DNA of 64,000 bases from an uncultured Ruminococcus sp. (GCA_900550695.1 URTF01000001.1:7896-71895), one strand, 5' to 3'; positions 7,860 to 56,201 are shown, counted from the stretch's first letter. Numbers and translations: made by a program. Notes: generated by a model from the sequence alone, not told the origin.

Positions 7860-8540
7860 TTATTTTTCCGCCGCAAAACCAAACTGCTCCGCAAGTTCTT
7901 CCGCAGTCATTTTCCGATCAAAGACAATGCTTTTTATATCGAGTGCGGAAAGGATATTTTTCTCCCTTTTCCGTCTTTCTTCAAGACATTTTATGTAGCC
8001 GTCATATCCCGTCAGTCCGTTCTGCTTTCCGTAGCCCTGTGAAACGTGGTAGTCGATAACTGCGTTGAGCCAGTCGTTTCCGCGCTCGTCAAGAACTGCA
8101 TCTATGGCGGCTCGGACATTTGGTTGGTCGATATATACGATGACAGGGGAGAGCGGTTTTATTATTTCCGCTATCTCGCCGATGTACCGCCCGGAAGCCT
8201 TTTCGTCCATTCCGAAGCGCATCATCGTTTCGCACATAGGATTTTGCAGGAAGATACAGTTGAAAACGTACACGGTTTCATTGTCAGCATTTTTTACAAA
8301 CGAACGCCATTTTTCAAGTATCTTTTCACGCTCGGTTTCAAAGTCGGGAAAATCATAGTCGGCATAATCGGCAGGGTGGTCGGTTACGCCCTCATCGATG
8401 CACACGACCTTTGCTCCCTTTTTCTCAAGCTCCTGCGCTATCATAGCTGCGGTGGTGCTTTTTCCGCTGCCGGGAAGTCCCTCTGTTATTATAATACTAA
8501 ACACCAATAAAATACAGGAAAAAATCTGCGCCGAAATCAC
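7860..8540 (-). CDS. P-loop NTPase/kinase-like protein whose 5' end is interrupted by a MITE (possibly pseudogenised or re-initiated inside the element)
   Basis: Walker A motif GLPGSGKST is close to the N-terminus. The first ~15 codons of the called ORF (QIFSCILLVFS) are MITE sequence. The ancestral SD and TTG start lie at 8610-8624 on the other side of the element. Possible restarts are GTG 8504, TTG 8507 and GTG 8540. Confidence 0.55.
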   Translation of the reverse strand: MISAQIFSCILLVFSIIITEGLPGSGKSTTAAMIAQELEKKGAKVVCIDEGVTDHPADYADYDFPDFETEREKILEKWRSFVKNADNETVYVFNCIFLQNPMCETMMRFGMDEKASGRYIGEIAEIIKPLSPVIVYIDQPNVRAAIDAVLDERGNDWLNAVIDYHVSQGYGKQNGLTGYDGYIKCLEERRKREKNILSALDIKSIVFDRKMTAEELAEQFGFAAEK

Positions 8541-8594
8541 ATATATCCAAGATTGTCGGCTTGATTTTTTCCAAATTTTAAATGGTGTTTAGTA
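8495..8594. mobile_element. MITE-like palindromic element, copy A (100 bp, short form lacking the central loop)
   Basis: Termini TACTAAACACCA...TGGTGTTTAGTA, flanked by direct TAA/TAA. Homologous to copies at 19.1, 24.9 and 33.3 kb. Confidence 0.75.
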
Positions 8595-8812
8595 TAAGAT
8601 TTGTTTTCAAACTAACTCCTCCCCTCGTTGCTATGTTTATTTTATATCGTGCAAAGCCGAATGTCAAGCACACTCTTTGCACGATACATTTTTTCCGTTG
8701 CGAAAAGCAGATGTTTGTCAAAGTTATTTTACAAAATGACAATTTTTACCACATAGTTATTCTATAATTATATTGATGATATCTGCAGCACTAACGGAAA
8801 GGACGTATAAAT

Positions 8813-17524: not shown

Positions 17525-17543
17525 TAATGCATAATGCGTAATT
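17525..17543 (+). repeat. Heptamer motif TAATGCATAATGCGTAATT, 4 nt after the glgA stop
   Basis: Read directly. Sense orientation relative to glgA. Confidence 0.65.
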
Positions 17544-18958: not shown

Positions 18959-19116
18959 TGTTATCCCCCATTTAATAGTATTTATTAATATTATATTGCA
19001 TTTTTTAGAAAAAATCAAGAGGAAAAGGCAATAAATCTCAAAATAAAAATTGCAGTATGTTTTTTGACAGACTGCTGCGGATACAGAACCGTCGCTGCGT
19101 TTTATTAATACTAATA

Positions 19117-19233
19117 TACTAAACACCAATAAAATACAGGAAAAAATCTGCACCGAGATCCTATATAAACCTGTTAAAAACAGCTACAAGATTGTCGGCT
19201 TGATTTTTCCAAATTTTAAAATGGTGTTTAGTA
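19117..19233. mobile_element. MITE-like palindromic element, copy B (117 bp; 125 bp if an 8-bp terminal duplication from 19109 is included)
   Basis: Same termini and core as copies C and D. TAA/TAA flanks if the left end is taken at 19109. Confidence 0.75.
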
Positions 19234-19325
19234 TAATTTTTTGCGGATATAAATAATTACGTATTAATTCTTCACTTTCCGAATACAATTATAGAAAACG
19301 ATATTGTTTTGTATTGAAAGGAACG

Positions 19326-21148: not shown

Positions 21149-21997
21149 TTACTGCCTGAGGGATCTCTGCCTTTGGAGGACACATTCCGCCGCGCGGTCG
21201 GATATTATCCCTCTGTCGCGCTCGGGATAGAATCCGAGCATCGGTGCAAGCAGGTCTTTTATCTGCGATTTTGTAAAGTGCGGAATATAAAGCTGCTGAC
21301 CGAACAAGGCTTCGGCACTTCGCATCTGACGTGTAAAGGTCGTGCCGAACGGTCGGGCAGTCACTGCGGAAATAAGCGCTTTCGGCTCGATATCCATTTG
21401 CGAAAGCTGCGTATTTGACAAAAGCGCAGCGCCGTTGTCAAATATCGGGCAGTAGGAATATTCCCCGTCCTCTTCAATGACCGCTATATTGTTAAGGTGG
21501 CGGTCGTCATTGAGGAAAAGCGCATCAACTTCAAAAATCAGCGTGAGGTATTCGGGAAAATGCACCAGTCCCGTGAACTCGGCTGTCTTTTCGGCAAGAA
21601 ATTGTATCCGCTTTTTGTCGCTGGAAAGGCGGCTCAGTTTTTCTTTTAGCGGTTCGTCAAGCACTCTGTTCAGCAGGTGGCTCAATGTTATTATCGACTG
21701 ATTTTTCGCAAGAAAATTCCTGCTTGAACAGCCTGTACGCCTGCGGTCATGGGCAAAAACGCTCTCCATTTCATAGCGCACAAAATCAAACGGCGTGTCG
21801 GCTTCGATATTGCTGAATTCAAGCATTGCGGAAACGGCGCACTCGCTCAATGCTTCATAGCCGAATTGGTCGAGCTTGAACCAGCGGTCGGAAGCTTCAT
21901 CATACCATTTTTCCTGATTGCCCTTTGATGAAGTTTCGGCGATTTTTTCATCGGTCGCAAAATATAGCTCCGTTACAGCTTTTCGATCTTTATCCAT
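21149..21997 (-). CDS. HipA-like Ser/Thr kinase core (short, HipT-like; lacks the HipA N-terminal subdomain)
   Basis: Gly-rich loop SSKGNQEKW near the N-terminus. Catalytic LNDDRHLNN and downstream PIFDNGAAL match HipA_C motifs. Only 282 aa. Confidence 0.7.
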   Translation of the reverse strand: MDKDRKAVTELYFATDEKIAETSSKGNQEKWYDEASDRWFKLDQFGYEALSECAVSAMLEFSNIEADTPFDFVRYEMESVFAHDRRRTGCSSRNFLAKNQSIITLSHLLNRVLDEPLKEKLSRLSSDKKRIQFLAEKTAEFTGLVHFPEYLTLIFEVDALFLNDDRHLNNIAVIEEDGEYSYCPIFDNGAALLSNTQLSQMDIEPKALISAVTARPFGTTFTRQMRSAEALFGQQLYIPHFTKSQIKDLLAPMLGFYPERDRGIISDRAAECVLQRQRSLRQ

Positions 21998-22560
21998 TGG
22001 TTATCCTCCGCCATTCTGCCGTTTGTTTTGGCGATGATCTCAAACGGCAGATATCCGTCAACACCGATAGCTTCAAGGTATTCACGAAGTCCGCTTCTTC
22101 CTCTCGGGACGCAGCGTTCCTCGATAAATTTGCAGAAATTCTCCCAAGTGGGAAATTTATTTTTACCGAAAGCAGTTTTTACGATATTTTCGGTAAAGTT
22201 TTCGGCAAAAATCGTTTTGTCAGTCATGTCGGCATAGATAACGGTGCACAGCTTTTCATTATCATAAAGAGAATATTTTTTCAAATCGTGACCGAGCTGC
22301 TTTTTTGAGTTCACAAAAGCAGCAGCGGTCTGTTTTTTTCTTATGCATATAGTCTGACCATCAAAGCAAAGCTCCGCATTGCGTTCGTTTTTGTCCAATC
22401 CAAGCTCTTTTATCCACGCTGTGGGGAGAGATATTTTGCAGGAAAGTGCGTTTTTTCCTGCCGTTCCGCCCGATGATGAATGGATTATCCGTACATTCCG
22501 TGTTTCCGTAATATCACTTCCTTTTTTAAATATTATAGCATATTCGTACCGAATAGTCAA
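21973..22560 (-). CDS. Fusion protein: AbrB/SpoVT-like swapped-hairpin DNA-binding segment plus HipA N-terminal-subdomain-like (HipS-like) segment; putative antitoxin/regulator of the downstream kinase
   Basis: KISLPTAWIKELGLDKNERNAELCFDGQTICIRK resembles AbrB/MazE. The C-terminal FIEERCVPRGRSGLREYLEAIGVDGYLPFEIIAKTNGRMAEDNQWI resembles the N-terminal subdomain of long HipA-like proteins. It overlaps the kinase gene by 25 nt. Confidence 0.5.
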   Translation of the reverse strand: MTIRYEYAIIFKKGSDITETRNVRIIHSSSGGTAGKNALSCKISLPTAWIKELGLDKNERNAELCFDGQTICIRKKQTAAAFVNSKKQLGHDLKKYSLYDNEKLCTVIYADMTDKTIFAENFTENIVKTAFGKNKFPTWENFCKFIEERCVPRGRSGLREYLEAIGVDGYLPFEIIAKTNGRMAEDNQWIKIEKL

Positions 22561-22589: not shown

Positions 22590-22949
22590 AAACGAGTGGA
22601 TATGGAATACGTCACGACAGAAATTTTTGGGTTATATTCATATCCGGTTGCCGTTCATTTTACGTTGAAACGCAAATGCACTCACTTCGTTCGTGTATTT
22701 GTGCTTCAAGGATAGTTATTCTGTAGATAAAGAATAGGCGCAATTCACATTTTTTAGGTTTACGAAACGGATTTCTCACATTCCGTTTTACCTTTTTGTG
22801 TGAATTGCGCCTTTTTATTTGTTACTGATTACGTTATTGCAACAACGCCTTAGCTGTTAGTTTAGGGAATTTCGCTCTCTGCGGAGAGCGACAAGGGACG
22901 CTGTCCCCTTGACCCCTGCAAGCCTTTAAAAAGGCTTGACCTAAACTTT
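22590..22949 (+). repeat. ~360-nt multi-hairpin repeat R, copy 1 (candidate structured ncRNA or 3'-UTR element)
   Basis: Homologous over its whole length to the reverse complement of 32450-32814. Contains a 13-bp-stem hairpin plus T-run at 22737-22816. Confidence 0.6.
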
Positions 22950-22988
22950 AGTTGGCTTCGCTTTGCCGAACAAATGTCAGCTATGCAA

Positions 22989-23021
22989 AATTACGCATTA
23001 CGAATTACGAATTACGCATTA
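22989..23021 (-). repeat. Heptamer array TAATGCGTAATTCGTAATTCGTAATGCGTAATT beginning with the helicase TAA stop codon
   Basis: Read directly on the minus strand. The stop codon is the first TAA of the array. Confidence 0.75.
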
Positions 23022-24755
23022 ATTATATTGTTTTCTTTTCTTATTCTGCGAGCCGTCAAATTTTCTTGCTCTGCCTGTATTTTTTCTGCGGAGGCTGCGG
23101 TAGTCCTTTTCGCCGCCCGAACGTCTGCGGTCGGAGCTGCCGTTTTGTCTGCCCTCGCTCTGCTTGCCCTCATAGCGCTTGATCTTTATCTTCTGACCGT
23201 TTATCTTCGTTCCCGTCATGGAATCGATGATATGGTCGAGGTCGGCTTCGGGGACTTCCACTGTTGTATAGCGGTCGTAGATATCGATCTTGCCGAAGTT
23301 TTTGCCTGCCATTCCCGTTGCGTCAACGAGTGCGCCGAGGATAAAGTTCGGTGCGATGCGGTTCTGTCTGCCGAGTGAGATCTCGATCTTGCAGGAGCTG
23401 CCCTTTGATCTGCCCTTTTCGTCACGTGGACGGAACACAGGCTTGATGAACTCGGGGACAGTGCGTGTTTCCTTGGAAATTCTCATTCCGAGGAGAGTTG
23501 CGGCGATCTGCTCCGCCGTAAAGCCACGCTCTGTAAGGCGTTCGAGAAGCTCTGCGCCGTTCGGATATTTCTCCGTTGTGGTATAGTCGCAGACTTTATC
23601 GAGAACCCGCTGTGTTTTCTTTTCGATAACGTCATCTCTTGTTGGGAGTTCGCAGCGGATAATATCAGCCTTTGTGAATCGTGCGATATCCTTAAGCTCG
23701 TAGACCTGCTTTCTGCCGCTCACTATCGTATAAGCCGAACCCGAACGACCTGCTCTGCCTGTTCGGCCGATACGGTGGATATAGTATTCATTGTCCTGCG
23801 GAATATCATAGTTGAAAACTGCATCGACATCGTCAACGTCGATGCCTCTTGCGGCAACGTCGGTCGCAATGAGGATATTTATTCTGCCGCTCTTGAAAGC
23901 GTTAAGCACCTGAGTTCTGCTCTGCTGCTTCATATCGCCGTGAAGACCTGCCGCTTTGAAACCCTTTGCAACGAGGTTTTCGGTAAGCTCATCTACCATT
24001 GCTTTTGTGTTGCAGAAAATCATCGAAAGCTTAGGCTCAAATGCGATAAGGAGCATCTGGAGCGCATCTGTCTTTCTTCCCATAGGAACTTCGTAATAGA
24101 ACTGCGCAACGCTCTCAACTGTGCGGCTTTTCTGCTCAACGCCGACAACGATCGGGTCACGCTGATATTCGCCCGTGATAGCCATTATCTGCGGCGGCAT
24201 TGTTGCCGAGAAAAGCACGGTCTGACGTTCTTCGGGGATATACTGCAAAATTTCTTCGATATCCTCACGGAAACCCATATTGAGCATCTCGTCAGCCTCG
24301 TCAAGAATCACCGAGCGGAGTTCTTCAAGGTGAAGCGTATGACGGCGGATATGATCCATTACACGTCCGGGAGTTCCGACAACGATATTTGCGCCCTTTT
24401 TGAGCTGAACTATCTGGCGTTCGATGTCAGCACCGCCGTAGATAGCGCAGGACTTTACATACGGAAGATATTTAGAGAATTTTTCGATTTCCTGCGAAGC
24501 CTGCATCGCAAGCTCTCTTGTCGGACAGAGTATGAGCGTTTGCACACGGCGATAGCCCTCAGGGTCTATCATTGCAACTGCGGGAAGTCCGAAAGCGGCT
24601 GTCTTTCCCGTACCCGTCTGCGAACGTCCCACAACGTCCTTTCCTTCGAGAAGAAGCGGAATGGCCTTAGCCTGAATTTCCGTAGCCTCCTCATATCCCA
24701 TTTCTTCGACCGCACGGACGATCTCCTGCGGCAATCCGAGTTCACTAAAAAGCAT
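23019..24755 (-). CDS. DEAD-box ATP-dependent RNA helicase with DbpA-type C-terminal RNA-binding domain and R/G/K-rich tail
   Basis: Q motif, AQTGTGKT-like GRSQTGTGKT, DEADEM, SAT and HRIGRTGRAG are present. The C-terminal IEISLGRQNRIAPNFILGAL fits a DbpA RBD. Start at MLFSELGL (ATG 24755). Confidence 0.9.
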   Translation of the reverse strand: MLFSELGLPQEIVRAVEEMGYEEATEIQAKAIPLLLEGKDVVGRSQTGTGKTAAFGLPAVAMIDPEGYRRVQTLILCPTRELAMQASQEIEKFSKYLPYVKSCAIYGGADIERQIVQLKKGANIVVGTPGRVMDHIRRHTLHLEELRSVILDEADEMLNMGFREDIEEILQYIPEERQTVLFSATMPPQIMAITGEYQRDPIVVGVEQKSRTVESVAQFYYEVPMGRKTDALQMLLIAFEPKLSMIFCNTKAMVDELTENLVAKGFKAAGLHGDMKQQSRTQVLNAFKSGRINILIATDVAARGIDVDDVDAVFNYDIPQDNEYYIHRIGRTGRAGRSGSAYTIVSGRKQVYELKDIARFTKADIIRCELPTRDDVIEKKTQRVLDKVCDYTTTEKYPNGAELLERLTERGFTAEQIAATLLGMRISKETRTVPEFIKPVFRPRDEKGRSKGSSCKIEISLGRQNRIAPNFILGALVDATGMAGKNFGKIDIYDRYTTVEVPEADLDHIIDSMTGTKINGQKIKIKRYEGKQSEGRQNGSSDRRRSGGEKDYRSLRRKNTGRARKFDGSQNKKRKQYN

Positions 24756-24947
24756 AATTTTTCCTTTCCATAACATGGCATTGGACAAAACACGCTCTCT
24801 GACAAAACTCTCCTGCCCTACGCCGACACATAATTATAATTTTTACAAAACAGAAATTAATTATAACACATTGCATAGCAAATTGTCAACTGCTTTTTTC
24901 TGTTATTTTTTTAATAAAAAAGCTTGTTCACGTTTAATGTAAACAAT

Positions 24948-25063
24948 ACTAAACACCAATAAAATAAAGGAAAAAATCTGCGCCGAAATCCTATATAAAC
25001 CTGTTTTCAACAGCTACGAGATTGTCGGCTTGATTTTTTCCAAATTTTAAATGGTGTTTAGTA
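24948..25063. mobile_element. MITE-like palindromic element, copy C (116 bp)
   Basis: Termini TACTAAACACCA/TGGTGTTTAGTA flanked by perfect 3-bp direct repeat CAA/CAA. Confidence 0.8.
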
Positions 25064-25088
25064 CAAGCGGTATTTTTTATCTTAAATT

Positions 25089-26087
25089 TTACAGTAAGTT
25101 ATATGCTCTCTGCATATTTATCTCCGAATACTCAACGCCTTTGGAGAAAAGCTTTGCACCGTTTATCCTGTCACGGAGCGTCAGAGCGCTGCTCTCATAA
25201 AGATAAGCGCCCCAGAACATCTTCACAGCCGAAACCGCAAAGTATGCAAAGTAAGCCTTTGAAACGATATCTCCGTCCGAGAGCGACTCGGGAAAATGTC
25301 GGAAAATAAAGTATTCCGCAAGCCGCCGCATTTCGTTTTCTGATGAAAAGTCGGTTTTATACTCGCCGCTTTCAAGCTTTTTCAGCATTTCGTCCCATTC
25401 GGGCGAGATGCTTTCCATTGCTTTGAGCACGGTGATAACTTCTTTGTCGGAAATTTCCTCTATGGCGAATGAATATCCCGAAAAATGCTCATACAATTCG
25501 GAAATCCCCGAAAAATCACTCTCCGCAAGCATATCCTGAGCATCTATCGCAAGCGCACAGCATTTTCTCAGTGCAATAAAAGGCTCATCACGCTCACAAA
25601 GCTTAAAAAGCATTTCACGTATCTGCAAAACGGCTTTTTCAAGCGCATTATCGGGAAAATCTGCTTCGGGAACGATATGTACAGGCTTTTCCTCGGTCAG
25701 AATTATTTCGGCGGCGGCTTCACAGCAAAGTCCGATGCCGATCTCCGTCCTGTCCGAAAGAAAGCTTCGGAAGCGTGGGTGGTCGGTGCATATTCCGCAG
25801 AGCGATTCTTCGCCGAGGGCAATGTAAAGGTCGCAGAGGTTCGAGCTGTTCAGAAAGGGGCATCGGTCATCTTCCGCAAGGATAAAATGTGCGCCGTCAC
25901 CGTCGATCGTGATGTTTTCGGAAAGGCGCTGACCTATTGCACCGCCAACGGAGCGGTATCTTCCGAGCGAATCTTCGTCAATACATATCTCCCAGCCTTG
26001 ACAGCAGGTATCACTGCATTTATCGGCAATGCATTTGAAGCGAGGGTAATAATCGGGGTAAAAAAGTCCGTTTCCGCCGTTCTGCAT
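25089..26087 (-). CDS. Cys-rich FliB-like protein (flagellin lysine-N-methylase family)
   Basis: N-terminal YPRFKCIADKCSDTCCQGWEICIDEDSLGRY matches the FliB/YkgJ-type cysteine cluster. Confidence 0.6.
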   Translation of the reverse strand: MQNGGNGLFYPDYYPRFKCIADKCSDTCCQGWEICIDEDSLGRYRSVGGAIGQRLSENITIDGDGAHFILAEDDRCPFLNSSNLCDLYIALGEESLCGICTDHPRFRSFLSDRTEIGIGLCCEAAAEIILTEEKPVHIVPEADFPDNALEKAVLQIREMLFKLCERDEPFIALRKCCALAIDAQDMLAESDFSGISELYEHFSGYSFAIEEISDKEVITVLKAMESISPEWDEMLKKLESGEYKTDFSSENEMRRLAEYFIFRHFPESLSDGDIVSKAYFAYFAVSAVKMFWGAYLYESSALTLRDRINGAKLFSKGVEYSEINMQRAYNLL

Positions 26088-26090
26088 AGC

Positions 26091-26366
26091 TTAAAGTCCC
26101 TTGCAGGTCTTGCTGTAAAGCACGAACGAGAGGATAACGCAGATTATCTGCGCAGCGTTGACGGAAAGCGTAAATCCGAACGCAAGCTTGAAAACGATGA
26201 GGTCAAGCACCAACGGGCTGTTCGTGTCCAGTCCGACAGACAGCGTGTAGGAAAGCCACGAAAGGTAAGGGACACCCTCGCAGATATTTCCGAGTATCGT
26301 TCCGAGTAAAATTCCTGCAAGAAGAAAAAAGAGAAATGCGATAGTGCGTTTTAAACCGCTGCTCAT
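26091..26366 (-). CDS. Small membrane protein (DUF4321-like)
   Basis: 91 aa with two TM segments. The motif LVLDLIVFKLAFGFTL is typical of the family. Confidence 0.55.
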   Translation of the reverse strand: MSSGLKRTIAFLFFLLAGILLGTILGNICEGVPYLSWLSYTLSVGLDTNSPLVLDLIVFKLAFGFTLSVNAAQIICVILSFVLYSKTCKGL

Positions 26367-27805
26367 GAGTTTGCTCCTTTATCGGTAATTTTTCTGAATG
26401 CAAAGCCGCAGAGTATCCAGAATATCGGTGCGCAGAGGACAGAGCTGAAGCTGAAAAAGCTTTGGATAATGTAAGCCGCAATAGCGACAAACATCGCAGT
26501 ATCCTGCCATTCGGCGCCCTTTATCGAAGCCTTGAACTTGCCGAATGAGCTTTTGAGCGAAGCTGCGAGGAAAACGGCAAATGCGGCAGCGGCAGGAATT
26601 CCTCGTGTTGCGGCAACATAAACGATCTCGTTGTAGCTTCGGTCGATAGAGCAAAGCGAAAGCGTGTCGTTCGCCATCTGGTATTTTGCCATAAGGTCGG
26701 GGCCTATACCAAAGAGCGTATGTTCCTTTATAAAGTACAGGCTCTTTTCAAGTCCGATGCCGTAAAGCGACTGAGCGTTTGCAACGGAGTAGTTCGTAAC
26801 GATATAAAGGCGGAAGAATGCGTCATAGTAAGCAATTGCCTTGTCACGGATATAAATGCCCTGGAATATCCATATCAGCGCAAAGATAACAGCCATTCCG
26901 ACAGCGACTGCAGCGTATCTGTAAACGGAGCTTTTAAGTATTCCGTTTTCAAACGCAGTCGGCTTTGAAGCGAAAATCATTATCGATACGATGACAAACA
27001 CCGCCGACATTCCTATTATCGGAACTATGGACGAAGTGAAGAAACCGACGAGCCAGAAAAGCATTGAAGCTGCACCGTAAATCCTTGCACGGAGGATATT
27101 TTTTTCATAGACCGCACCCGTTAAAGCTGCGGCGAATACGATAGTGAGGAACGTTCCGAAAACGATAGGATTTTCCGAAAGTCCGTGCGAAAGCATTACA
27201 TCTTTGAGTGCGACCGTTGGAAGATCGGCGAAGTTCGGCATAAAACGAAGCTTCGGGATATGCTGAAAAACTGCGAAAAGCGACTGTACAACGCCGACTG
27301 CGACGATAGTATCCATGATGATGCGAACCGTCTTTGTGCGTGTTACGCAGGCTGCAAGGCAGAAGATACCGAAGTAGCCGAGCAGTGAGAGCAGACCCTC
27401 ATATCGTCCTATCTCGCCTGCGAGCGCAGTGTTAACGACCTCAGAGGCAACATTCGGGCGGAGGACAACGCAGTAATACGAAGCGAACGCCCAGACCGCC
27501 ATAAAAACGATGAGCCAGAGTATCTTGTCTTTTTTGAACGAAAGGCAGCCCTTTATCATTGCGATAAGGAAGAAAAGTATGCAGGAAAATCCCGTGAAGT
27601 ACAGTCCCGCACTCATAAATGCAGGCGAAGCATTCACGCCGTAAACGAGGAATCCCGTTATCTGCGGTACGATAACGCAGGCTGCGAGCAGAGCCGCTAT
27701 CCAGTTCTGGAGCGTTTCCTGCTTCATATTTAGGATAAAGTTCGATTTGCTGGTTGTACCGAATATGGTTTTCGGCTGTTTTTTCGTCTGATTTGGTGTG
27801 TCCAT
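26363..27805 (-). CDS. O-antigen ligase-like (Wzy_C) polytopic membrane protein
   Basis: About 480 aa with more than 10 TM segments. ATG at 27805 has SD GGAG. 4-nt overlap with the downstream gene. Confidence 0.55.
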   Translation of the reverse strand: MDTPNQTKKQPKTIFGTTSKSNFILNMKQETLQNWIAALLAACVIVPQITGFLVYGVNASPAFMSAGLYFTGFSCILFFLIAMIKGCLSFKKDKILWLIVFMAVWAFASYYCVVLRPNVASEVVNTALAGEIGRYEGLLSLLGYFGIFCLAACVTRTKTVRIIMDTIVAVGVVQSLFAVFQHIPKLRFMPNFADLPTVALKDVMLSHGLSENPIVFGTFLTIVFAAALTGAVYEKNILRARIYGAASMLFWLVGFFTSSIVPIIGMSAVFVIVSIMIFASKPTAFENGILKSSVYRYAAVAVGMAVIFALIWIFQGIYIRDKAIAYYDAFFRLYIVTNYSVANAQSLYGIGLEKSLYFIKEHTLFGIGPDLMAKYQMANDTLSLCSIDRSYNEIVYVAATRGIPAAAAFAVFLAASLKSSFGKFKASIKGAEWQDTAMFVAIAAYIIQSFFSFSSVLCAPIFWILCGFAFRKITDKGANS

Positions 27806-27900
27806 AAATAAAACTCCATTCAGAAAAATATCCCTGCGATTTGCGCCGCAGGGATAATTATTGCTTTCGTGTTTACAGGCTGTAATATACACAATGTATA

Positions 27901-29463
27901 TTACTTAGCGTATTCAACTACGCGGCTTTCACGAATGATATTAACTTTGATCTGTCCGGGGTAGTCCATTTCGTCCTCGATACGCTTGGCAATATCTCTT
28001 GCAACAATGACCATCTTTTCATCGTTGATCTTGTCGGGATAAACCATGATGCGGACTTCACGGCCTGCCTGGATAGCGAAGGATTTTTCAACACCCTCAT
28101 AGGAGCAGCAGATCTCTTCGAGCTTTTCAAGACGCTTGATGTAGTTCTCGTAGTTCTCGCTTCTTGCGCCCGGTCTTGCCGCTGAAATAGCATCGGCAGC
28201 CTGAACGAGAGCAGCGACAACGGAGTGTATCTCAACATCGCCGTGGTGAGCCTCGACTGCGTGAATGACCTCAGGGCTTTCCTTGTACTTGCGGCAGACA
28301 TCAACGCCGATCTGGACGTGTGAACCCTCGATCTCGTAGCTGAGAGCCTTACCGATATCGTGGAGAAGTCCTGCTCTTCGTGCGAGGTTTGCGTCAACGC
28401 CAAGCTCGGAAGCCATAATTCCTGCGAGATGTGCGACCTCGATAGAATGGTTGAGTACGTTCTGGCGGTAGGAGGTTCTGTAATGAAGTCGTCCGAGGAG
28501 GCGTACAAGCTCGTGATTAAGACCGTGTACGTTGGTTTCGAGAACGGCTCTGTCACCCTCCTGCTTCATGATATGCTCGACTTCACGGCGAGCCTTGTCG
28601 ACCATTTCTTCGATACGGGACGGGTGGATCCTACCGTCTGCGATAAGCTTTTCAAGTGCGATACGGGCAACCTCACGGCGAGCCTGATCGAAGCAGGAAA
28701 GCGTGATAGCTTCGGGTGTATCGTCGATGATAAGGTCAACGCCCGTGAGCGTTTCGAGTGCCTTTATGTTTCTGCCCTCACGTCCGATGATCCTGCCCTT
28801 CATTTCGTCATTCGGCAGAGGAACAACGGAAACTGCAGATTCGGATACCTGATCTGCGGAGCATTTTGAAATTGCAAGGGAAATAAGATTTCTTGCCTTT
28901 TCCTCACATTCGTCCCTGAGCTGCTGCTCATAAGACTGTATCTTGAGAGCCTTTTCATGTACAAGCTCATTTTCGAGCATTGAAAGCAGGTGTTCCTTAG
29001 CCTGATCCATAGTGAACTGTGAGATCTTTTCGAGGGTTTCCATCTGCTGCTTTTTGATATTGTCGGCTTCTTCAAGCTTTTCGTCAGCCTGCTTGATCTT
29101 TTTCTGGAGTATTTCGTCCTTTTTATCAAGGCTGTCGTTCTTTTTGTCGAGATTGTCTTCCTTCTGCTGGATCCTGCGCTCCTGACGGGAAATTTCTCCG
29201 CGGCGCTCTTTGAGTTCCTTATCAAGCTCGGAACGGCTCTTCTGGATCTCCTCCTTTGCATCGAGAAGTGCGATCTTTTTTTGATTTTCTGCTTCTGTCT
29301 TTGCTGCTTCGACAAGTCTTTCGGCTTCCTTTTCCGCCGAACCTATCGCTGCCTCGGCCTGCTTTTTGCGGTGGTTTATACCTGCGGCGAAGAATATCGC
29401 TCCACCGACAGCGAAGCCTGCAATAAGCGCAATGACAGCCGCAATGATAGCTGCTGTGTTCAA
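27901..29463 (-). CDS. rny: Ribonuclease Y
   Basis: N-terminal TM, long K/E coiled coil, KH domain ([11 protein letters not shown]) and HD domain (LLHDIGKA). TTG start with SD GGGGAGG. Confidence 0.92.
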
Positions 29464-29691
29464 GTCCTTGACCTCCCCAAAATTATATTATCGCTCGGAG
29501 GGCCTGAACGAGAGGATTTCACATTCCGCAGTAAGAATTTCTCTGCGAAAACGGTGAAAAACGAAAATATCCCTGCCTTTCTCAATACTTTAAACGTTTA
29601 AGCCGAACCGTTTGCAAAAAACGATATCAGCCGAGTAAAACGCCGAAGCGGCAGAGAGATATGTTATCGTTACCCCGAATATTATCCTCAA

Positions 29692-29720
29692 TTGACAATT
29701 TTCACTACATAACGTATAAT
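29692..29720 (+). promoter_or_regulatory. Orphan perfect sigma-A promoter (TTGACA-17-TATAAT) with no obvious downstream gene
   Basis: Hexamers at 29692-29697 and 29715-29720. The next 350 nt on the plus strand lack a credible RBS-preceded ORF. Confidence 0.5.
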
Positions 29721-30124
29721 TTTATCCGAAAAATACAATCTGTAAAGAATAACTGAACCCATAAAACGGGTTTGATAATGATAATGAATATATGAAACCT
29801 CTGTTCAAAGCGACAGAGCGAGTGAAAAATGAACTGCAATTTATCAAGCCGGCACCGTTCGCCGTCAAAAGACCATTCCGCATAAGCGAGCAGAACAGCG
29901 TATGAACCGCATACGGCAGCCGCCTTAGTGACAAACCTGCGAGCCTTTTTATCGGCAGGCAGAATTACCTCATATTGCATTTACTTTATTATTGTAATAT
30001 AAATCATTAATAATGTCAAGGTTATTTTAACATTTTCACACTTTTTAATAAGAAAAAAGCCTCTTAACTGTGAAAAAAGACGATTGACAAATTCCGAGAA
30101 GTGTGATAACATAAACACATAATA

Positions 30125-30375
30125 ACATAAAAACGTTGATAAAGGAAGGCAACCCTCCGTTGAGGACTTTCAGAGAGCGGCAGTCATCGGCTGAAAACTG
30201 CGGCAGGTTCGGGAGCTTTGCACACCGCCTTTTGAGTGCGCTCAATCTGCGCCGTCAGCCTGCGTTAAAGGCATTAATGAGGTGTGTTTTTCAGGGAAAA
30301 GCGCATAAATTAAGGTGGAAACACGGTTTTTATCGTCCTTAGTGCTTGTAAAAAAGCGTTAAGGACGTTTTTGTT
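30125..30375 (+). promoter_or_regulatory. T-box riboswitch leader of thrS (probable Thr ACC specifier about 30224-30226) with terminator at about 30335-30375
   Basis: AGAGA box, T-box sequence aaattaaGGTGGaaACacGG at about 30308-30326, and terminator stem cgtccttag/ttaaggacg plus TTTTT. Candidate promoter TTGACA at 30084. Confidence 0.75.
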
Positions 30376-30442
30376 TTCTTAAAAAGGATAAAAAACGAAT
30401 TTTATGTTAAAATTACTATAATATATGTGGAGGTAAACGAAA

Positions 30443-32389
30443 ATGGTAAAGCTCACACTTAAAGACGGAAGCGTTAAGGAATGTGAAAAGGGCACAGCCG
30501 CAGCAGATGTTATCAAGGGCATCGGAATGGGTCTTTATAAGGCTGCATGTGCTGTAAAGCTCGGCGGAAAGGTATGCGATATCCGCACACCTATTGAAGA
30601 GGACTGCGAATTTGAAGTTCTCACATTCGATTCCGAAGACGGCAAAAAGACTTTCAACCACACAGCATCGCATATCCTTGCTCAGGCTGTAAAGCGCCTT
30701 TACCCCGAGGTAAAGCTTGCTATCGACCCTGCAATTCAGGATGGATTCTACTACGATTTCGATGCGCCTAAAGCATTCACACCCGATGACCTCGCAAAGA
30801 TCGAAGCCGAGATGAAGAAGATCGCCAAGGAGGGCATCGAGCTTGAAAAGTTCGAGCTTTCCCCCGAGGAAGCTATCAAGAAGCTTGAAGAAATGGGCGA
30901 ACCTTATAAAGTCGAACTCTGTCGGGAACACGCAGGCAAGGGCGAACCTATCTCATTCTATAAGCAGGGTGACTTCATCGACCTCTGCGCAGGTCCTCAC
31001 CTCGCTTCGACTGCTCCTGTAAAGGCTGTAAAGCTTCTCTCCTGTACAGGTGCTTACTGGAGAGGCGACTCAAAGGGCAAGCAGCTCTGCCGTGTTTACG
31101 GTACAGCATTCCCCAAGGCAAGCGAACTCGAAGCATACCTCGCAGCAAGAGAAGAAGCTCAGAAGCGTGACCACAACAAGCTCGGCCGTGAGCTTGAATA
31201 TTTCACAACGGTTGACTGCATCGGTCAGGGACTTCCCGTTCTTCTTCCAAAGGGCGCAAAGGTTATCCAGATACTTCAGCGCTGGGTAGAAGATGTTGAA
31301 GCTTCAAAGGGCTGTATGCTCACAAAAACTCCGCTTATGGCAAAGCGTGACCTCTATAAAATTTCGGGACACTGGGATCACTACCTTGATGGTATGTTTA
31401 TCCTCGGCGACCCTTACGATGAGGAAAAGGAATGTTTCGCACTCCGTCCGATGACCTGCCCGTTCCAGTATCAGGTATACCTCAACCGTGCAAGATCGTA
31501 CCGTGATCTCCCAATGCGTCTTACCGAAACCTCCACACTTTTCAGAAATGAGGACAGCGGCGAAATGCACGGTCTTATCCGTGTCCGTCAGTTCACAATT
31601 TCCGAGGGTCACTATATCCTTCGCCCCGAACAGCTCGAAGATGAGTTCAGAGGCTGCCTTGAGCTTGCAAAGTATATGCTCGATACAGTAGGACTTCTCG
31701 AGGACTGCACATTCAGATTCTCCCAGTGGGACCCCGCAAACCCGAAGAATAAGTACGAGGGTACAGCGGAACAGTGGGAACACGCTCAGTCCGCAATGAA
31801 AACTATCCTCGACGACCTCGGCGTTGAATATTCTATCGGTATCGACGAAGCCGCATTCTATGGCCCTAAGCTCGATATCCAGTATAAGAACGTATTCGGC
31901 AAGGAAGATACACTCGTAACTATCCAGATCGATATGCTCCTCGCAGAAAAGTTCGGTATGGAATATACCGATGTTGACGGCAAGAAGCGCAGACCTTATA
32001 TCATCCACAGAACATCACTCGGCTGCTATGAGCGTACACTCGCATACCTCATCGAAAAGTATGCAGGCGTGTTCCCGCTCTGGCTCGCTCCCGAGCAGGT
32101 AAGAATTCTCCCTATCGGCGAAGCTCATCAGGCTTATGCTCAGGAGATCGCAGATAAGATCACAGCACACGGAATGAGAGTAACTGTCGATAAGCGTGAC
32201 GAAAATATCGGTACAAAGATCAAGGCATCACGTCTTGAAAGAATCCCATATACCTTTATCATCGGCGATAAGGAAACAGAAAACAAGTCCGTTACTATCC
32301 GCTCGAGAAAAGAGGGCGAGCTTCCCGACGTTAAAATTGACGAAGCACTCGCTAAGATCTTTGAGGAGAATGATACTAAGGCAAAATAA
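30443..32389 (+). CDS. thrS: Threonine--tRNA ligase
   Basis: 648 aa with TGS, editing (HTASHILA), class II core and anticodon-binding domains. Confidence 0.95.
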   Translation: MVKLTLKDGSVKECEKGTAAADVIKGIGMGLYKAACAVKLGGKVCDIRTPIEEDCEFEVLTFDSEDGKKTFNHTASHILAQAVKRLYPEVKLAIDPAIQDGFYYDFDAPKAFTPDDLAKIEAEMKKIAKEGIELEKFELSPEEAIKKLEEMGEPYKVELCREHAGKGEPISFYKQGDFIDLCAGPHLASTAPVKAVKLLSCTGAYWRGDSKGKQLCRVYGTAFPKASELEAYLAAREEAQKRDHNKLGRELEYFTTVDCIGQGLPVLLPKGAKVIQILQRWVEDVEASKGCMLTKTPLMAKRDLYKISGHWDHYLDGMFILGDPYDEEKECFALRPMTCPFQYQVYLNRARSYRDLPMRLTETSTLFRNEDSGEMHGLIRVRQFTISEGHYILRPEQLEDEFRGCLELAKYMLDTVGLLEDCTFRFSQWDPANPKNKYEGTAEQWEHAQSAMKTILDDLGVEYSIGIDEAAFYGPKLDIQYKNVFGKEDTLVTIQIDMLLAEKFGMEYTDVDGKKRRPYIIHRTSLGCYERTLAYLIEKYAGVFPLWLAPEQVRILPIGEAHQAYAQEIADKITAHGMRVTVDKRDENIGTKIKASRLERIPYTFIIGDKETENKSVTIRSRKEGELPDVKIDEALAKIFEENDTKAK

Positions 32390-32449
32390 ATTTGCCTCGC
32401 TAAGTAAATTATCCTCGGCTAAGCAAAAGGTTTAGCTATGCAAAAAAAT

Positions 32450-32814
32450 AAAGTTTACGTCCACGCTTTTCAAAGGGTGGCAGGGGTCAAGGGGACGGAG
32501 TCCCATTGTCGCTCTCCGCAGAGAGCGAAATTCCCCAAACTGACAGCATAACCGCCGGTTGCAATAGCGAAATCAGCAGCAAATAAAAAGGCGCAATTCA
32601 CACCAAAACGTAAAACAGAACGTGAGAAATCAGTTTTGTAAACATTAAAAATGTGAATTGCGCCCATTCTGTTTTCCTAAAACAAACTGTCCTCTGACAG
32701 CAAATATACGAACGAAGTGAGCATATTTGCTGTCAGACATAATATGAACAGCTATGGAAAATGACTGCGAACCATACAGTTTGCGCTATGATATGATTTC
32801 ATATCCGTCCGTTT
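32450..32814 (-). repeat. ~365-nt multi-hairpin repeat R, copy 2 (inverted relative to copy 1)
   Basis: Its reverse complement aligns with 22590-22949 (roughly 75-80 percent by eye). The shared 13-bp hairpin is at 32590-32664. Confidence 0.6.
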
Positions 32815-32865: not shown

Positions 32866-33315
32866 ATGATCGAATACAAAAAGCTTACGGAAAAAGAGCT
32901 TGACCGCTTTATCGAAATGCGGATAGCGCAGCTCCGTGAGGAGGGCGCAAAGGAGGATATCGACCTGCGCCCTGCGCTGAGAGATTATTACGAACGCCAC
33001 ATAAAGGACGGGACCTTCGTTTCGTGGCTCGCTTTTGACGGGGACGAAATTATCGGCACAAGCGGAATGTCGTTCGTAGAAAAGCCGCCGTATTTCGGCT
33101 GTCCGAGCGGCAGGATCGGCTTGCTTTCGAGTATGTTCACCGACAGCCGCTACAGAAGAAAGGGCATTGCGACCGAGCTTTTAAACCGTGTTATCAGCGA
33201 GGCGCGAAGCTACGGCTGCGGAACGGTGCAGATAACCGCTTCCGATATGGGCGTGAAGCTTTATTCTTCGTATGGCTTTGTGCATAATGAGAATTTTATG
33301 CAGTTTAAAATTTAA
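32866..33315 (+). CDS. GNAT family N-acetyltransferase
   Basis: 149 aa. Acetyl-CoA motif RRKGIATELL and C-terminal YSSYGF. Confidence 0.8.
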   Translation: MIEYKKLTEKELDRFIEMRIAQLREEGAKEDIDLRPALRDYYERHIKDGTFVSWLAFDGDEIIGTSGMSFVEKPPYFGCPSGRIGLLSSMFTDSRYRRKGIATELLNRVISEARSYGCGTVQITASDMGVKLYSSYGFVHNENFMQFKI

Positions 33316-33328
33316 CACATAATACTAA

Positions 33329-33445
33329 TACTAAACACCAATAAAATACAGGAAAAAATCTGCGCCGAAATCGCATATAAACCTGTTAAAAACAGCTACA
33401 AGATTATCGGCTTGATTTTTTCCAAATTTTAAATGGTGTTTAGTA
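33329..33445. mobile_element. MITE-like palindromic element, copy D (117 bp)
   Basis: Same termini as the other copies. Flanked by TAA/TAA. Confidence 0.8.
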
Positions 33446-33455
33446 TAAAAAAGAT

Positions 33456-33499
33456 AAAAACGAGCAGATCGGTTCAACTGTGACTGATCTGCTCGTTTT
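33456..33499. terminator. Bidirectional intrinsic terminator
   Basis: Stem aaaacgagcagatc/gatctgctcgtttt. Confidence 0.7.
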
Positions 33500-33504
33500 A
33501 CTTT

Positions 33505-33581
33505 TGGTGCACCCGACGGGATTCGAACCCACGGCCTTCAGAGTCGGAGTCTGACGCTCTATCCAGCTGAGCTACAGGTGC
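33505..33581 (-). tRNA. tRNA-Arg (anticodon CCG), CCA encoded
   Basis: A 77-nt cloverleaf was folded by hand: acceptor GCACCTG/CGGGTGC, D-arm GCTC..GAGC, anticodon stem TCAGA/TCTGA with loop CTCCGAC, T-loop GGTTCGAATCC. The T-stem base has two G-U pairs. Confidence 0.9.
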
Positions 33582-44391: not shown

Positions 44392-44396
44392 GAAAA

Positions 44397-44427
44397 ATTC
44401 GGAATTCGGAATGAGGAATTCGGAATT
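44397..44427 (+). repeat. AATTCGG-type short tandem repeat just after the degV stop
   Basis: aattcggaattcggaatgaggaattcggaatt. Related in form to the TAAT(G/T)CG arrays. Confidence 0.6.
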
Positions 44428-44585
44428 ATTTATATTCTGCATATTTGTCACGAAAACCTTAATTCCGTAGGGGCGGATTCCATATCCGCCAGTTGCAAGC
44501 CCTTTATTTTAGGCAAAGTTTCTGTATGGGACGTGTTTCCCGTCCCAATTTGCGAAACGATTTTCGGCAGCAATTATTCACAAAG

Positions 44586-48062: not shown

Positions 48063-48199
48063 TTTTTACTTCCTTTTATAAAAAATCATAATTATCTAAT
48101 ATATAAGTATAACACTTTTTATGCTATGTTGCAACAACTAATAACAAATTTTATATAAAATTGACTAATTTTCGCCTTTTTTGATGTTATAATGACAAT

Positions 48200-48316
48200 T
48201 TTTTAATGCGTAATGCGTAATGCGTAATGCGTAATTAATGCAATGCAGAGCATTGCATACAAATTAAGAATTGTAAAAAAATGCGTTCACAATTTTTTTC
48301 GTGAACGCATTTTTTA
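48200..48316 (+). ncRNA. Candidate ~115-nt sRNA made of four TAATGCG units, a 9-bp hairpin and an intrinsic terminator
   Basis: Extended -10 promoter TGtTATAAT at 48185-48193. Array at 48204-48235, hairpin at 48238-48258, and terminator stem atgcgttcac/gtgaacgcat (48281-48310) plus T-run. No ORF. Confidence 0.35.
48204..48235 (+). repeat. (TAATGCG)x4 + TAAT heptamer array
   Basis: Perfect 4-unit tandem repeat. It is the only array in the window not preceded by a same-strand gene. Confidence 0.8.
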
Positions 48317-48338: not shown

Positions 48339-48376
48339 CTAATTACGCATTACGCATTACGAATTACGCATTATCA
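48339..48376 (-). repeat. Heptamer array TGATAATGCGTAATTCGTAATGCGTAATGCGTAATTAG starting at the pncB stop
   Basis: Read directly on the minus strand. It forms an inverted repeat with 48204-48235. Confidence 0.75.
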
Positions 48377-56043: not shown

Positions 56044-56107
56044 TGTGATTATCTCATTTGCGGTTTATTTGTGATTATTATATCCGTGCTGAGATTTTTT
56101 ATAAATG

Positions 56108-56183
56108 AAAAAGGCGCAATTCACATAATAGATTGAACGAATCAGGTTTCGTAAACCTTAAAATGTGAATTGCGCCTTTTTTT
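56108..56183. terminator. Bidirectional terminator that is a third copy of the repeat-R hairpin (stem GGCGCAATTCACA/TGTGAATTGCGCC)
   Basis: 13-bp stem identical to those at 22737-22811 and 32590-32664. About 38-nt loop containing aggtttacgaaac. Flanked by an A-run and a T-run. Confidence 0.7.
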
Positions 56184-56189
56184 GCTAAT

Positions 56190-56201
56190 AATTACGCATT
56201 A
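56190..56201 (-). repeat. TAATGCGTAATT motif whose first TAA is the pyk stop codon
   Basis: Minus strand reads ...ACA ATA AAA TAA TGCGTAATT. Confidence 0.6.

Follow-up and report, generated by a model that had tools for sequence, protein, structure and literature searches.

A stretch of DNA of 64,000 nt from an uncultured Ruminococcus sp. (GCA_900550695.1 URTF01000001.1:7896-71895, hereafter "the window") harbors two copies of a multi-hairpin repeat, here called R, located downstream of a DEAD-box helicase gene and of thrS, respectively. R is probably, though by no means certainly, a modular gene-3′-end cassette belonging to a dispersed family of non-coding repeats of a gut Oscillospiraceae clade; in our best reading it would be an element of the REP/BIME/SPRITE kind, supplying the genes at whose ends it lies with a structured 3′ untranslated region (UTR) and a terminator. 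What can be observed directly is the membership of R in the family, its modular architecture, its position and orientation with respect to stop codons, the covariation of its stems, the terminator-like anatomy of its hairpin H3 and its gain, loss or replacement at orthologous sites. An initial annotation of this DNA had envisaged an old, two-copy large structured RNA gene, a description that must be given up for an element that is dispersed, modular and present in high copy number, with modules occurring independently of one another. Nevertheless, of the three options left by that annotation (one RNA, two back-to-back RNAs sharing a terminator, or a 3′-UTR module), the last fits best because the end of R that carries tandem heptamers abuts the stop codon of the gene reading into it.

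Copies of R in the window

Positions 22650-22953 (+) of copy 1 match positions 32752-32446 (-) of copy 2 with 82.4% identity over 312 nt (blastn, E = 3e-77), in agreement with direct reading and with a MAFFT alignment; the two segments are indeed look-alikes sharing their hairpins, as first annotated, and every hairpin then listed is present. The similarity had been drawn along the whole of 22590-22949: it holds for 22650-22953, whereas the leftmost ~45 nt (22590-22636) are weakly similar. R spans 22637-23023 (+) in copy 1 and 32446-32766 (-) in copy 2, with the same series of hairpins in both. A profile hidden Markov model of the family (nhmmer) recovers copy 1 in its full length at 22633-23023 (+; model positions 15-408, E = 4e-113), from the left end through H2, H3, a three-way-junction domain, H6 and H7 to the heptamer array, and the family members matching this copy by blastn cover 22637-23000. 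Copy 2, which is without the heptamer array, is found at 32446-32766 (-; model positions 18-335, E = 1e-78), with the H2 loop at 32709-32721, H3 at 32590-32664 and the junction domain at 32435-32539 (-), where the covariance model R1 presented below scores 86.4 bits. On its right side copy 1 extends ~75 nt past the end formerly assigned to it, the extension consisting of H7, a GCTATGCAA motif and four tandem heptamers placed over the helicase stop codon. Upon folding, the two strands of copy 1 yield z = -7.5 and -7.6 relative to shuffled sequence.

A short variant is situated on the minus strand directly after the stop codon (56199) of pyk, a gene recognized by Pfam; at 56107-56200 it comprises ~1.5 heptamer units and ATTATTAGC, followed by a lone H3 having T-runs on both sides. 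In this pyk-side copy (56107-56183), the interior of H3 is flipped with regard to the flanks.

A dispersed, high-copy family

The arms of H3 were used as a pattern (GGCGCAATTCACA-N30-60-TGTGAATTGCGCC) in a search restricted to one genome per species, yielding at least 112 loci in six Oscillospiraceae or "Ruminococcus sp." assemblies. In the 0.84 Mb sampled from those six assemblies blastn and the nhmmer profile detected ~190 copies of R, ~60 of which are full length; the window itself belongs to a seventh, related assembly (it matches GCA_900772515.1). The mean pairwise identity of R is ~77-78% both within and between five "type A" genomes, and some paralogues inside one genome reach 92-95%.

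A comparison of 127 orthologous gene ends between species showed R to be present in both members of 34 pairs and in neither member of 75, the remaining 18 being discordant. R follows thrS both in the window and in two other species (ThrS 87% identical), with differences in the type of H3 interior and in the H5-H6 region; the orthologous helicase end of another species has no R match. At the end of a glgA-like gene, the stop codon is followed in the window by a short array, (TAATGCR)n, with an ordinary terminator behind it and, in another species, by an (AATTCGG)4 array and a full R, so that at this site the position of the array is constant and the body of R is exchangeable. Taken together, the differences between species at given sites and the existence of near-identical paralogues indicate that copies of R are subject to ongoing replacement, conversion or re-insertion.

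Neither a target-site duplication nor a flanking motif shared by the two ends of R was found, and at orthologous "empty" sites the divergence extends through the entire 3′ region, giving no clean insertion against which the ends could be compared. As to terminal inverted repeats, there is a subterminal inverted match of 8-12 nt (CATAGCTG...CAGCTATG), and head-to-head dimers possess inverted arms of ~400 nt. An associated transposase was sought by all-against-all blastp of the open reading frames (ORFs) of 113 loci and rejected, the outcome being cross-species orthologue groups only; the 8-kb loci around the ~190 copies hold no multicopy protein family. An origin from phages was also discarded, as H4-H6 is the only domain of R seen in three unannotated faecal "phage" scaffolds and in one IMG/VR contig, and so was an origin from plasmids, the plasmid matches being cyanobacterial heptamer arrays.

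Modular architecture

In the family consensus the order of the modules is: left end, H2, H3, a spacer, an outer stem enclosing a three-way junction (P1, H4 and H5), then H6, H7, GCTATGCAATAATT and the heptamers. The left end is made of one to three units of ~25 nt with consensus CATATCCCATAGCTGTTCATACTG, and the right end of three to five heptamers of the type ATT(A/C)CG(A/C).

H2 (22664-22710, +), which is doubled in some family members, consists of a ~17-bp stem and a conserved 13-nt loop, CTCACTTCGTTCG, at 22681-22693, identical to that at 32709-32721 in copy 2; the identical loop and the differing stems reported for this hairpin were thus seen in both copies. Among 58 distinct instances of H2 in the family, the seven loop-adjacent pairs are 67-93% Watson-Crick, with two to three pair types at several positions. 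H3 (22737-22811, unstranded) is a long palindrome with a 13-bp base (GGCGCAATTCACA / TGTGAATTGCGCC), preceded by an A-run and followed by a T-run. Its arms occupy 22737-22749 / 22799-22811 in copy 1, 32590-32602 / 32652-32664 in copy 2 and 56113-56125 / 56164-56176 after pyk, the latter pair bearing out the third H3 previously noticed there; the window holds nine matches to the 13-nt arms compared to 2.3 expected by chance. The interior of H3 is of two types (49-51 nt and 55-58 nt) that track lineage.

The three-way-junction domain of copy 1 (P1, H4 at 22871-22891 with a TGCG loop, H5 at 22892-22911), together with H6 (22919-22938), is matched by model R1 at 22861-22964 (+; 92.4 bits, E = 5e-26), its outer stem being formed by AGTTTAGG (22859-22866) and CCTAAACT (22940-22947). 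H4, H5 and H6 are all as originally described, and the H4 palindrome occurs in the window in two places only, 22871-22891 and 32509-32529, with zero occurrences expected by chance. According to the family alignment and consensus, the stretch 22951-22990 (+) comprises H7 (GTTGGC...GCCGAAC) as well as a subterminal motif, CAGCTATGCAA, which matches the left-end motif CATAGCTG in inverted form. Four tandem heptamers, ATT(A/C)CG(A/C), complete the element at 22989-23022 (+), reading (UAAUKCG)n in the helicase sense from the stop codon at 23019-23021.

H3 (e.g., after pyk), heptamer arrays and the H4-H6 junction domain are also found alone, and 29 matches are limited to the right end, mostly as arrays alone. 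At many loci R occurs in head-to-head pairs with the heptamer ends outward and, in all the inspected pairs, each right end faces its own gene; one such dimer aligns colinearly with another at 83-90% identity, and dimers have been duplicated as whole units. The GGATATG once assigned to a separate hairpin, H1, is the vestige of the left end of an inverted partner, pairing with the CATATCC of R's own left end; complete head-to-head partners occur in other genomes.

Stop codons and heptamer arrays

The genes concerned were identified by Pfam: the DEAD-box helicase gene (23019-24788, -), the RNase Y gene, thrS (30443-32389, +), a GNAT gene (32866-33315, +) and pyk (56199-57620, -). Read on the strand of the upstream gene, the orders are helicase, R, ORF 21973-22560 and thrS, R, GNAT. 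The placement of R directly downstream of helicase and thrS is as first reported, whereas the strand had been worded incorrectly, since the transcripts of these genes would carry the reverse complement of the hairpins as written; furthermore, the other side of R does not face a divergent gene start, the next genes (ORF 21973-22560 and GNAT 32866-33315) being co-directional in the helicase/thrS sense. The near-consensus promoter of ORF 21973-22560, at 22560-22532 (-), is just outside the repeat. Duplication of paralogous genes together with their upstream region was rejected, the ORF by copy 1 having no Pfam family and that by copy 2 encoding a GNAT acetyltransferase.

Throughout the R clade the genes flanking R, taken from simple ORF calls (at least 110 aa), are convergent in 73 cases, co-directional in 52 and divergent in 8, and among the listed matches in metagenomes the corresponding numbers are 23, 23 and 5; the gene nearest the right end of R, within 400 nt, is convergent 125 times and co-directional 33 times (R clade). 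In the copies endowed with an array, the distance between array end and stop codon has a median of 0 and an interquartile range of -4 to +6, the commonest register being that in which TAA lies inside the last heptamer unit, and, of the arrays that abut a stop codon, 47 read in the gene sense and one reads in the opposite sense. A replication-linked orientation of R was discarded, because the monomers of a dimer point in opposite ways, indicating that orientation follows the adjacent gene instead of the direction of replication.

Five of the six arrays of the window follow stop codons (htpG, glgA, helicase, degV and the NAPRTase gene). In addition to that of copy 1, they are the array starting from the HtpG stop codon (1204-1220, +; gene by Pfam); the stand-alone array (17526-17542, +) placed between the stop codon of the glgA-like gene (17521) and an ordinary terminator, at the site that is occupied in another species by a full R; an array of the AATTCGG type following the stop codon of the DegV gene and followed in turn by a degenerate R right end (44396-44450, +; profile match and Pfam); and the array after the NAPRTase gene stop codon at 48374 (48342-48372, -; array scan and Pfam).

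The sixth array, (TAATGCG)4 at 48205-48235 (+), follows no gene and comes after an extended -10-like motif, TGTTATAAT. Downstream of it are a hairpin, ATGCAATGC/GCATTGCAT, and, further on, a stem, ATGCGTTCAC/GTGAACGCAT, that has a T-run on either side; this region (~48183-48312, +) may give rise to a small transcript of ~110 nt beginning with heptamers. The promoter/terminator scan reported neither candidate site at 48183-48312; a TTGACT-TATAAT promoter considered at 48162-48192 was dismissed (its spacer is 21 nt and it is not in the scan), leaving the extended -10 motif alone.

Further observations concern sequences related to the arrays or their neighborhood. In the gene sense, arrays of the AATTCGG type present a GGA motif every 7 nt. 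Genes for CsrA and FliW are found in the genome of the window a few kb from copy 2 (L114, 7676-8338), downstream of fliD. AATTACG heptamer arrays occur on Nostocales plasmids, in up to 20 places per record (e.g., L116, Dolichospermum pAfl69, 30394-30429), constituting a cross-phylum recurrence of an identical 7-nt unit.

H3 as a putative terminator

At least five of the eight positions on both sides of H3 are T in >90% of 152 copies, and in both copies of the window a perfect 13-bp base is followed by TTTTTATTTG, i.e., a hairpin and a U-rich tract. The terminator formerly assigned to H3 is thus borne out in its anatomy, and H3 resembles a bidirectional intrinsic terminator at which transcription would end.

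Like bidirectional intrinsic terminators, H3 has a stem base containing G + C and flanking A- and T-runs, lies after stop codons and, in the case of pyk, stands there alone. It differs from them in its length of 75-85 nt and in having a conserved interior and apical loop; moreover, unlike ordinary terminators, H3 recurs >150 times with the same 13-bp arms.

The junction domain and its covariation

Variants of H4 other than those proper to the R clade were found in at least 120 gut-metagenome contigs, and the contigs bearing the junction domain range in GC content from 29 to 60%, with diverse flanking genes; among the listed matches the right-hand neighbor is convergent 64 times and co-directional 25 times. 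The junction domain is a conserved motif widespread in gut bacteria and absent from the RNA family library. H4 is nearly invariant, UUUCGCU-N-UC[UGCG]GA-N-AGCGA, its loop being TGCG in 113 of 120 distinct sequences and its variable pair U-A, G-C or C-G. In the distant relatives a shared hairpin is present upstream of the domain, and after it comes AATTCACCCT, a sequence similar to the H3 arm GCAATTCACA.

In 37 diverse copies of the distal domain from the clade, aligned with MAFFT, 81.6% of the cells are paired as opposed to 77.3% after shuffling, and the covariation score is 0.154 as opposed to 0.098 (0 of 500 shuffles as high). A mixed alignment of 76 sequences (A6) raised the score to 0.286 compared to 0.124 for shuffled sequences (0 of 500 as high) and at most 0.097 for slid controls. 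The covariance model built from this alignment, R1, has exactly two strong matches in the window (92 and 86 bits) and 134 matches in 100 metagenome loci, several contigs having two to four copies. Finally, in an alignment fitted to R1 (A7), 25 of 28 pairs change on both sides, 88% of the cells pair compared to 72.5% after shuffling, and covariation amounts to 0.366 compared to 0.134, again with 0 of 500 shuffles as high. The compensatory changes in the stems, initially noticed between the two copies of the window, are thus seen also among the ~190 family members and the at least 120 distant H4-H6 relatives, and the homologues whose collection had been recommended do support covariation above both shuffled and slid controls.

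An exact H4 hairpin preceded by GGGGGA is found ~200 nt upstream of MobA/MobL-type relaxase genes in several contigs (L119, L133, L165 and L188, as well as L120, L171 and L180), immediately downstream of an inverted repeat (ATGCC...GGCAT) that precedes GTGCGCTCT; the junction domain is otherwise missing there. The combination of inverted repeat and GTGCGCTCT resembles an origin of transfer (oriT) of the MOBQ type.

Strand, molecule and coding capacity

The raw counts of G-U pairs suggested different strands for the two halves of R; for internal wobble pairs, i.e., those flanked by Watson-Crick pairs, the counts are 104 G-U forward and 145 reverse and the raw asymmetry is gone, while in the wider H4-H6 family 44 G-U stand beside 42 A-C. 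An assignment of the strand from wobble pairs was consequently dropped. Because no strand asymmetry was found, RNA and single-stranded DNA, or one strand and the other, are not separable, and the premise that RNA is the selected molecule is not upheld by the wobble mismatches, which are symmetric between the strands. The + strand displays loops of the UNCG (UGCG) and UGAA/GAAA types, whereas the transcripts of the adjacent genes would carry the other strand.

At the gathering threshold of Rfam 15 no family matched R, a tRNA gene at 33508-33581 (-) being alone in passing it within the window, and the permissive E-value mode, applied to both copies, the phage-like loci and nine metagenome loci, yielded matches at chance level only. 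The initial impression that R belongs to no known RNA family and lacks OLE, ROOL and raiA features accordingly survives the Rfam check, the models of these three, like those of GOLLD and HEARO, giving no match up to an E-value of 10; nor was a description of the R family found in the literature. No ORF is conserved, as had been stated for the two copies: in 67 full copies the longest ORFs are inconsistent in frame and position, and a 65-aa ORF of copy 2 has an early stop in copy 1. Neither the left end nor the stretch from H3 to H4 yielded a conserved promoter.

What R may do and the explanations in competition

The function of R as a gene-end cassette can be envisaged as follows. The transcript of the neighboring gene (helicase for copy 1, thrS for copy 2) would have its stop codon in or next to a short unstructured heptamer array (copy 2 being without the array) and would then present H7, the compact domain consisting of the three-way junction and H6, the spacer and, at last, the H3 palindrome, whose T-runs on both sides would end transcription coming from either direction. 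Beyond H3 would lie H2 and the left end, facing at many loci a second, inverted R that serves a convergent gene. The hairpins may stabilize or mark the 3′ end of the mRNA, and the copies may have been spread or homogenized by recombination or gene conversion between them or by an enzyme acting in trans. Should this be the case, ~1-2% of these gut genomes would consist of a reusable gene-end cassette, as extrapolated from the two to three copies of the 64-kb window, and dozens of core genes (thrS, DEAD-box helicase, pyk) would share a structured 3′ UTR and terminator; by way of this sharing, the genes would become open to co-regulation, their ends to recombination with one another and metagenome bins to errors of assembly.

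Several facts weigh against such a cassette. In co-directional intergenic regions the orientation preference is moderate (32 vs 20 in the R clade and 14 vs 9 in metagenomes); the equal frequency of G-U and A-C stem mismatches is unexpected for an RNA under strand-specific selection; on the gene-sense strand the H4 loop is CGCA, the canonical UNCG-type UGCG being on the opposite strand; the H3 hairpin is far longer than typical terminator hairpins; and a mechanism of spread is not apparent, R showing neither a target-site duplication nor, apart from the 8-12-nt match, a clear terminal inverted repeat, and having no associated protein. Lastly, conservation of the junction domain across GC contents of 29-60% exceeds what a merely tolerated terminator cassette would need and points to a specific partner. 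It is conceivable, albeit tentatively, that the P1-H4-H5 junction with H6, perhaps along with the heptamer arrays, is an uncatalogued signal of gut Clostridia read by such a partner at gene 3′ ends, and that R is its lineage-specific amplification fused to a terminator as opposed to merely tolerated junk. The partner could be an RNA-binding protein, a nuclease setting the fate of the mRNA 3′ end or an enzyme acting on single-stranded DNA, and the heptamer-led candidate transcript (~48195-48312) could then be a decoy for it. With its wide GC range and strong covariation, the junction domain lends itself, as a concrete candidate, to inclusion in RNA-motif catalogues and to a search for its binding partner.

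The main rival of the gene-end cassette, which we deem rather unlikely, is a mobile element acting as single-stranded DNA, with the hairpins, H4 above all, serving as recognition or cleavage signals for a trans-acting enzyme of the tyrosine/HUH type, similar to IS200/IS605-derived palindrome-associated elements, REPINs or single-strand initiation signals; the gene-end location and the terminator look would be by-products of tolerated insertion. Such an element would account for the high copy number, the presence/absence differences at orthologous sites, the near-identical paralogues, the dimers duplicated as units and the compensatory stems with strand-symmetric wobble mismatches, and would be in keeping with a separate GTAG-tagged REP-like family in the same intergenic regions and with the exact H4 located ~200 nt upstream of MobA-type relaxase genes, by the oriT-like inverted repeat, in several metagenome contigs. 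However, no Y1/HUH transposase, TnpB or other multicopy gene is near any of the ~190 copies, the boundaries show neither a conserved target tetranucleotide nor a target duplication, the left one is ragged and modular, and the same sites are filled across species; besides, the binding of arrays and R ends to stop codons in one orientation (47 to 1) is poorly explained by an insertion rule operating at the DNA level.

It is quite improbable that R or its parts are stand-alone genes for trans-acting non-coding RNAs, be it a + strand RNA running from the left end to H3 or two back-to-back RNAs sharing H3. The conserved loops and covarying stems, the strong T-run after H3 in the + orientation, the UNCG- and UGAA/GAAA-type loops of the + strand and a fold far more stable than that of shuffled sequence would suit such genes, yet ~100 copies per genome with 20-30% divergence do not resemble a gene for a trans-acting RNA, the fold of the reverse strand is just as good, H4-H6 are downstream of the + strand terminator, the modules occur separately, and neither a conserved promoter nor an Rfam match was found, as mentioned above. 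As for a 9.5-kb composite transposon or invertible segment (22950-32450) that would have the two copies as its ends, their inverted arrangement around this block is what such a structure would display, but the idea is already contradicted and was rejected as having hardly any chance of being correct: the block contains core genes (DEAD-box helicase, RNase Y, thrS), each copy is accounted for by its own neighboring gene end, the position behind thrS is occupied by R in other species too while the orthologous helicase end elsewhere is without an R match, and hundreds of unpaired copies exist in other places.

Other repeats and candidate transcripts of the window

A second repeat family, of ~130 nt and with terminal inverted repeats of ~20 nt (ATACTAAACACCAATAAAAT ... 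ATTTTAAATGGTGTTTAGTAT), is represented at 8492-8607, 19114-19246, 24944-25076 and 33326-33458 and looks like a classical MITE. It adjoins the left end of R in two other genomes (L054 and L107), and downstream of ORF 25089-26087 the MITE-like element is found in the window and R in a Hadza genome. A third, REP-like family consists of a GTAG-tagged palindrome, GTAGGG(T/G)CGGATTCCATATCCG(A/C)CC, present in the window at 44469-44494 and in the left flanks of R in L002, L004, L017, L041 and L049, and often sharing intergenic regions with R; this suggests that the clade may possess a system of the RAYT type.

Two tandem paralogous mini-units (1281-1419 and 1620-1758, +), 80% identical and 339 nt apart, each have a consensus-like promoter (TTGACA-17 nt-TATAAT), a conserved stretch of ~60 nt (GAGGGCATACCGATAGAC.G..GCTCCC) and a hairpin that, with its T-run, resembles a terminator; they have no Rfam match and are candidates for small RNAs or leaders.

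R and the known repeat systems

As judged by defining features, R does not belong to the MITE, REP, IS200/IS605-derived or Rfam families. No tnpA, tnpB or iscB was found near R, no conserved motif at its left boundary and no HEARO or IS605-orfB match in Rfam; with the IS200/IS605-derived elements and their omega RNAs R has in common that it is non-coding, hairpin-rich and multicopy, with hairpins that matter as single strands, whereas a register with gene ends is not a feature of that family. The large RNAs OLE, ROOL, GOLLD, raiA and HEARO are, like R, several hundred nt long and rich in covarying stems and conserved loops but, unlike R, occur in one or few copies per genome and have defined promoters and terminators. 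An integron attC site was rejected, since the H3 arms GGCGCAATTCACA / TGTGAATTGCGCC do not contain, by eye, the RYYYAAC / GTTRRRY cores and the neighbors are core housekeeping genes, not cassettes.

The resemblance is closer to the REP/BIME and REPIN-RAYT systems, which are also extragenic, palindromic and abundant, lie at gene 3′ ends and between convergent genes, are mosaics of modules often arranged as inverted doublets and keep their hairpins by compensatory change. Roles of REP/BIME in termination and in protection of mRNA 3′ ends have been proposed (Higgins, Gilson, Bertels & Rainey). Indeed, high copy number, extragenic location, enrichment at 3′ ends and between convergent genes and depletion between divergent ones all place R in a REP/BIME-like class. 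On the other hand, REP units measure 20-40 nt and R ~360 nt, with seven or more hairpins, a stop-codon-anchored heptamer array and a module conserved across contigs of 29-60% GC; the modules of R are far longer than the 20-40-nt palindrome typical of REP/REPIN and do not carry its GTAG/CTAC tag, and no RAYT gene is present in the window or in the loci around the repeats.

Other repeats found in 3′ UTRs or having terminator-like hairpins are SPRITE, BOX, RUP and QMITE2 (PMC10969869). Of the pneumococcal repeats, the dispersed SPRITE has the look of a Rho-independent terminator, and BOX is built of modules, among them tandem sub-units in variable number, with stable folds predicted for its RNA; these two and RUP, as well as QMITE2 of Coxiella, cluster in intergenic regions, QMITE2 mainly in 3′ UTRs (PMC10969869). 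R has no sequence similarity to these repeats, showed no target duplications and, beyond the subterminal 8-12-nt match, no clear terminal inverted repeats, and unites in one element a terminator-like palindrome, a three-way junction and a heptamer array, in strict register with the stop codon. Finally, heptamer repeats adjoin stop codons in Xanthomonas (GGGAATC) and in Nostoc (GGGGAYT, STRR) (PMC4692102) and, as in the R arrays, amount to about four units of a 7-nt repeat, the differences being that the R units are A+T-rich, do not form G-quadruplexes and, about half of the time, are attached to a structured repeat of larger size. The link between array and stop codon in a single orientation adds to the Xanthomonas/Nostoc pattern a Firmicute case, joined to a larger element, which should ease the study of that pattern.

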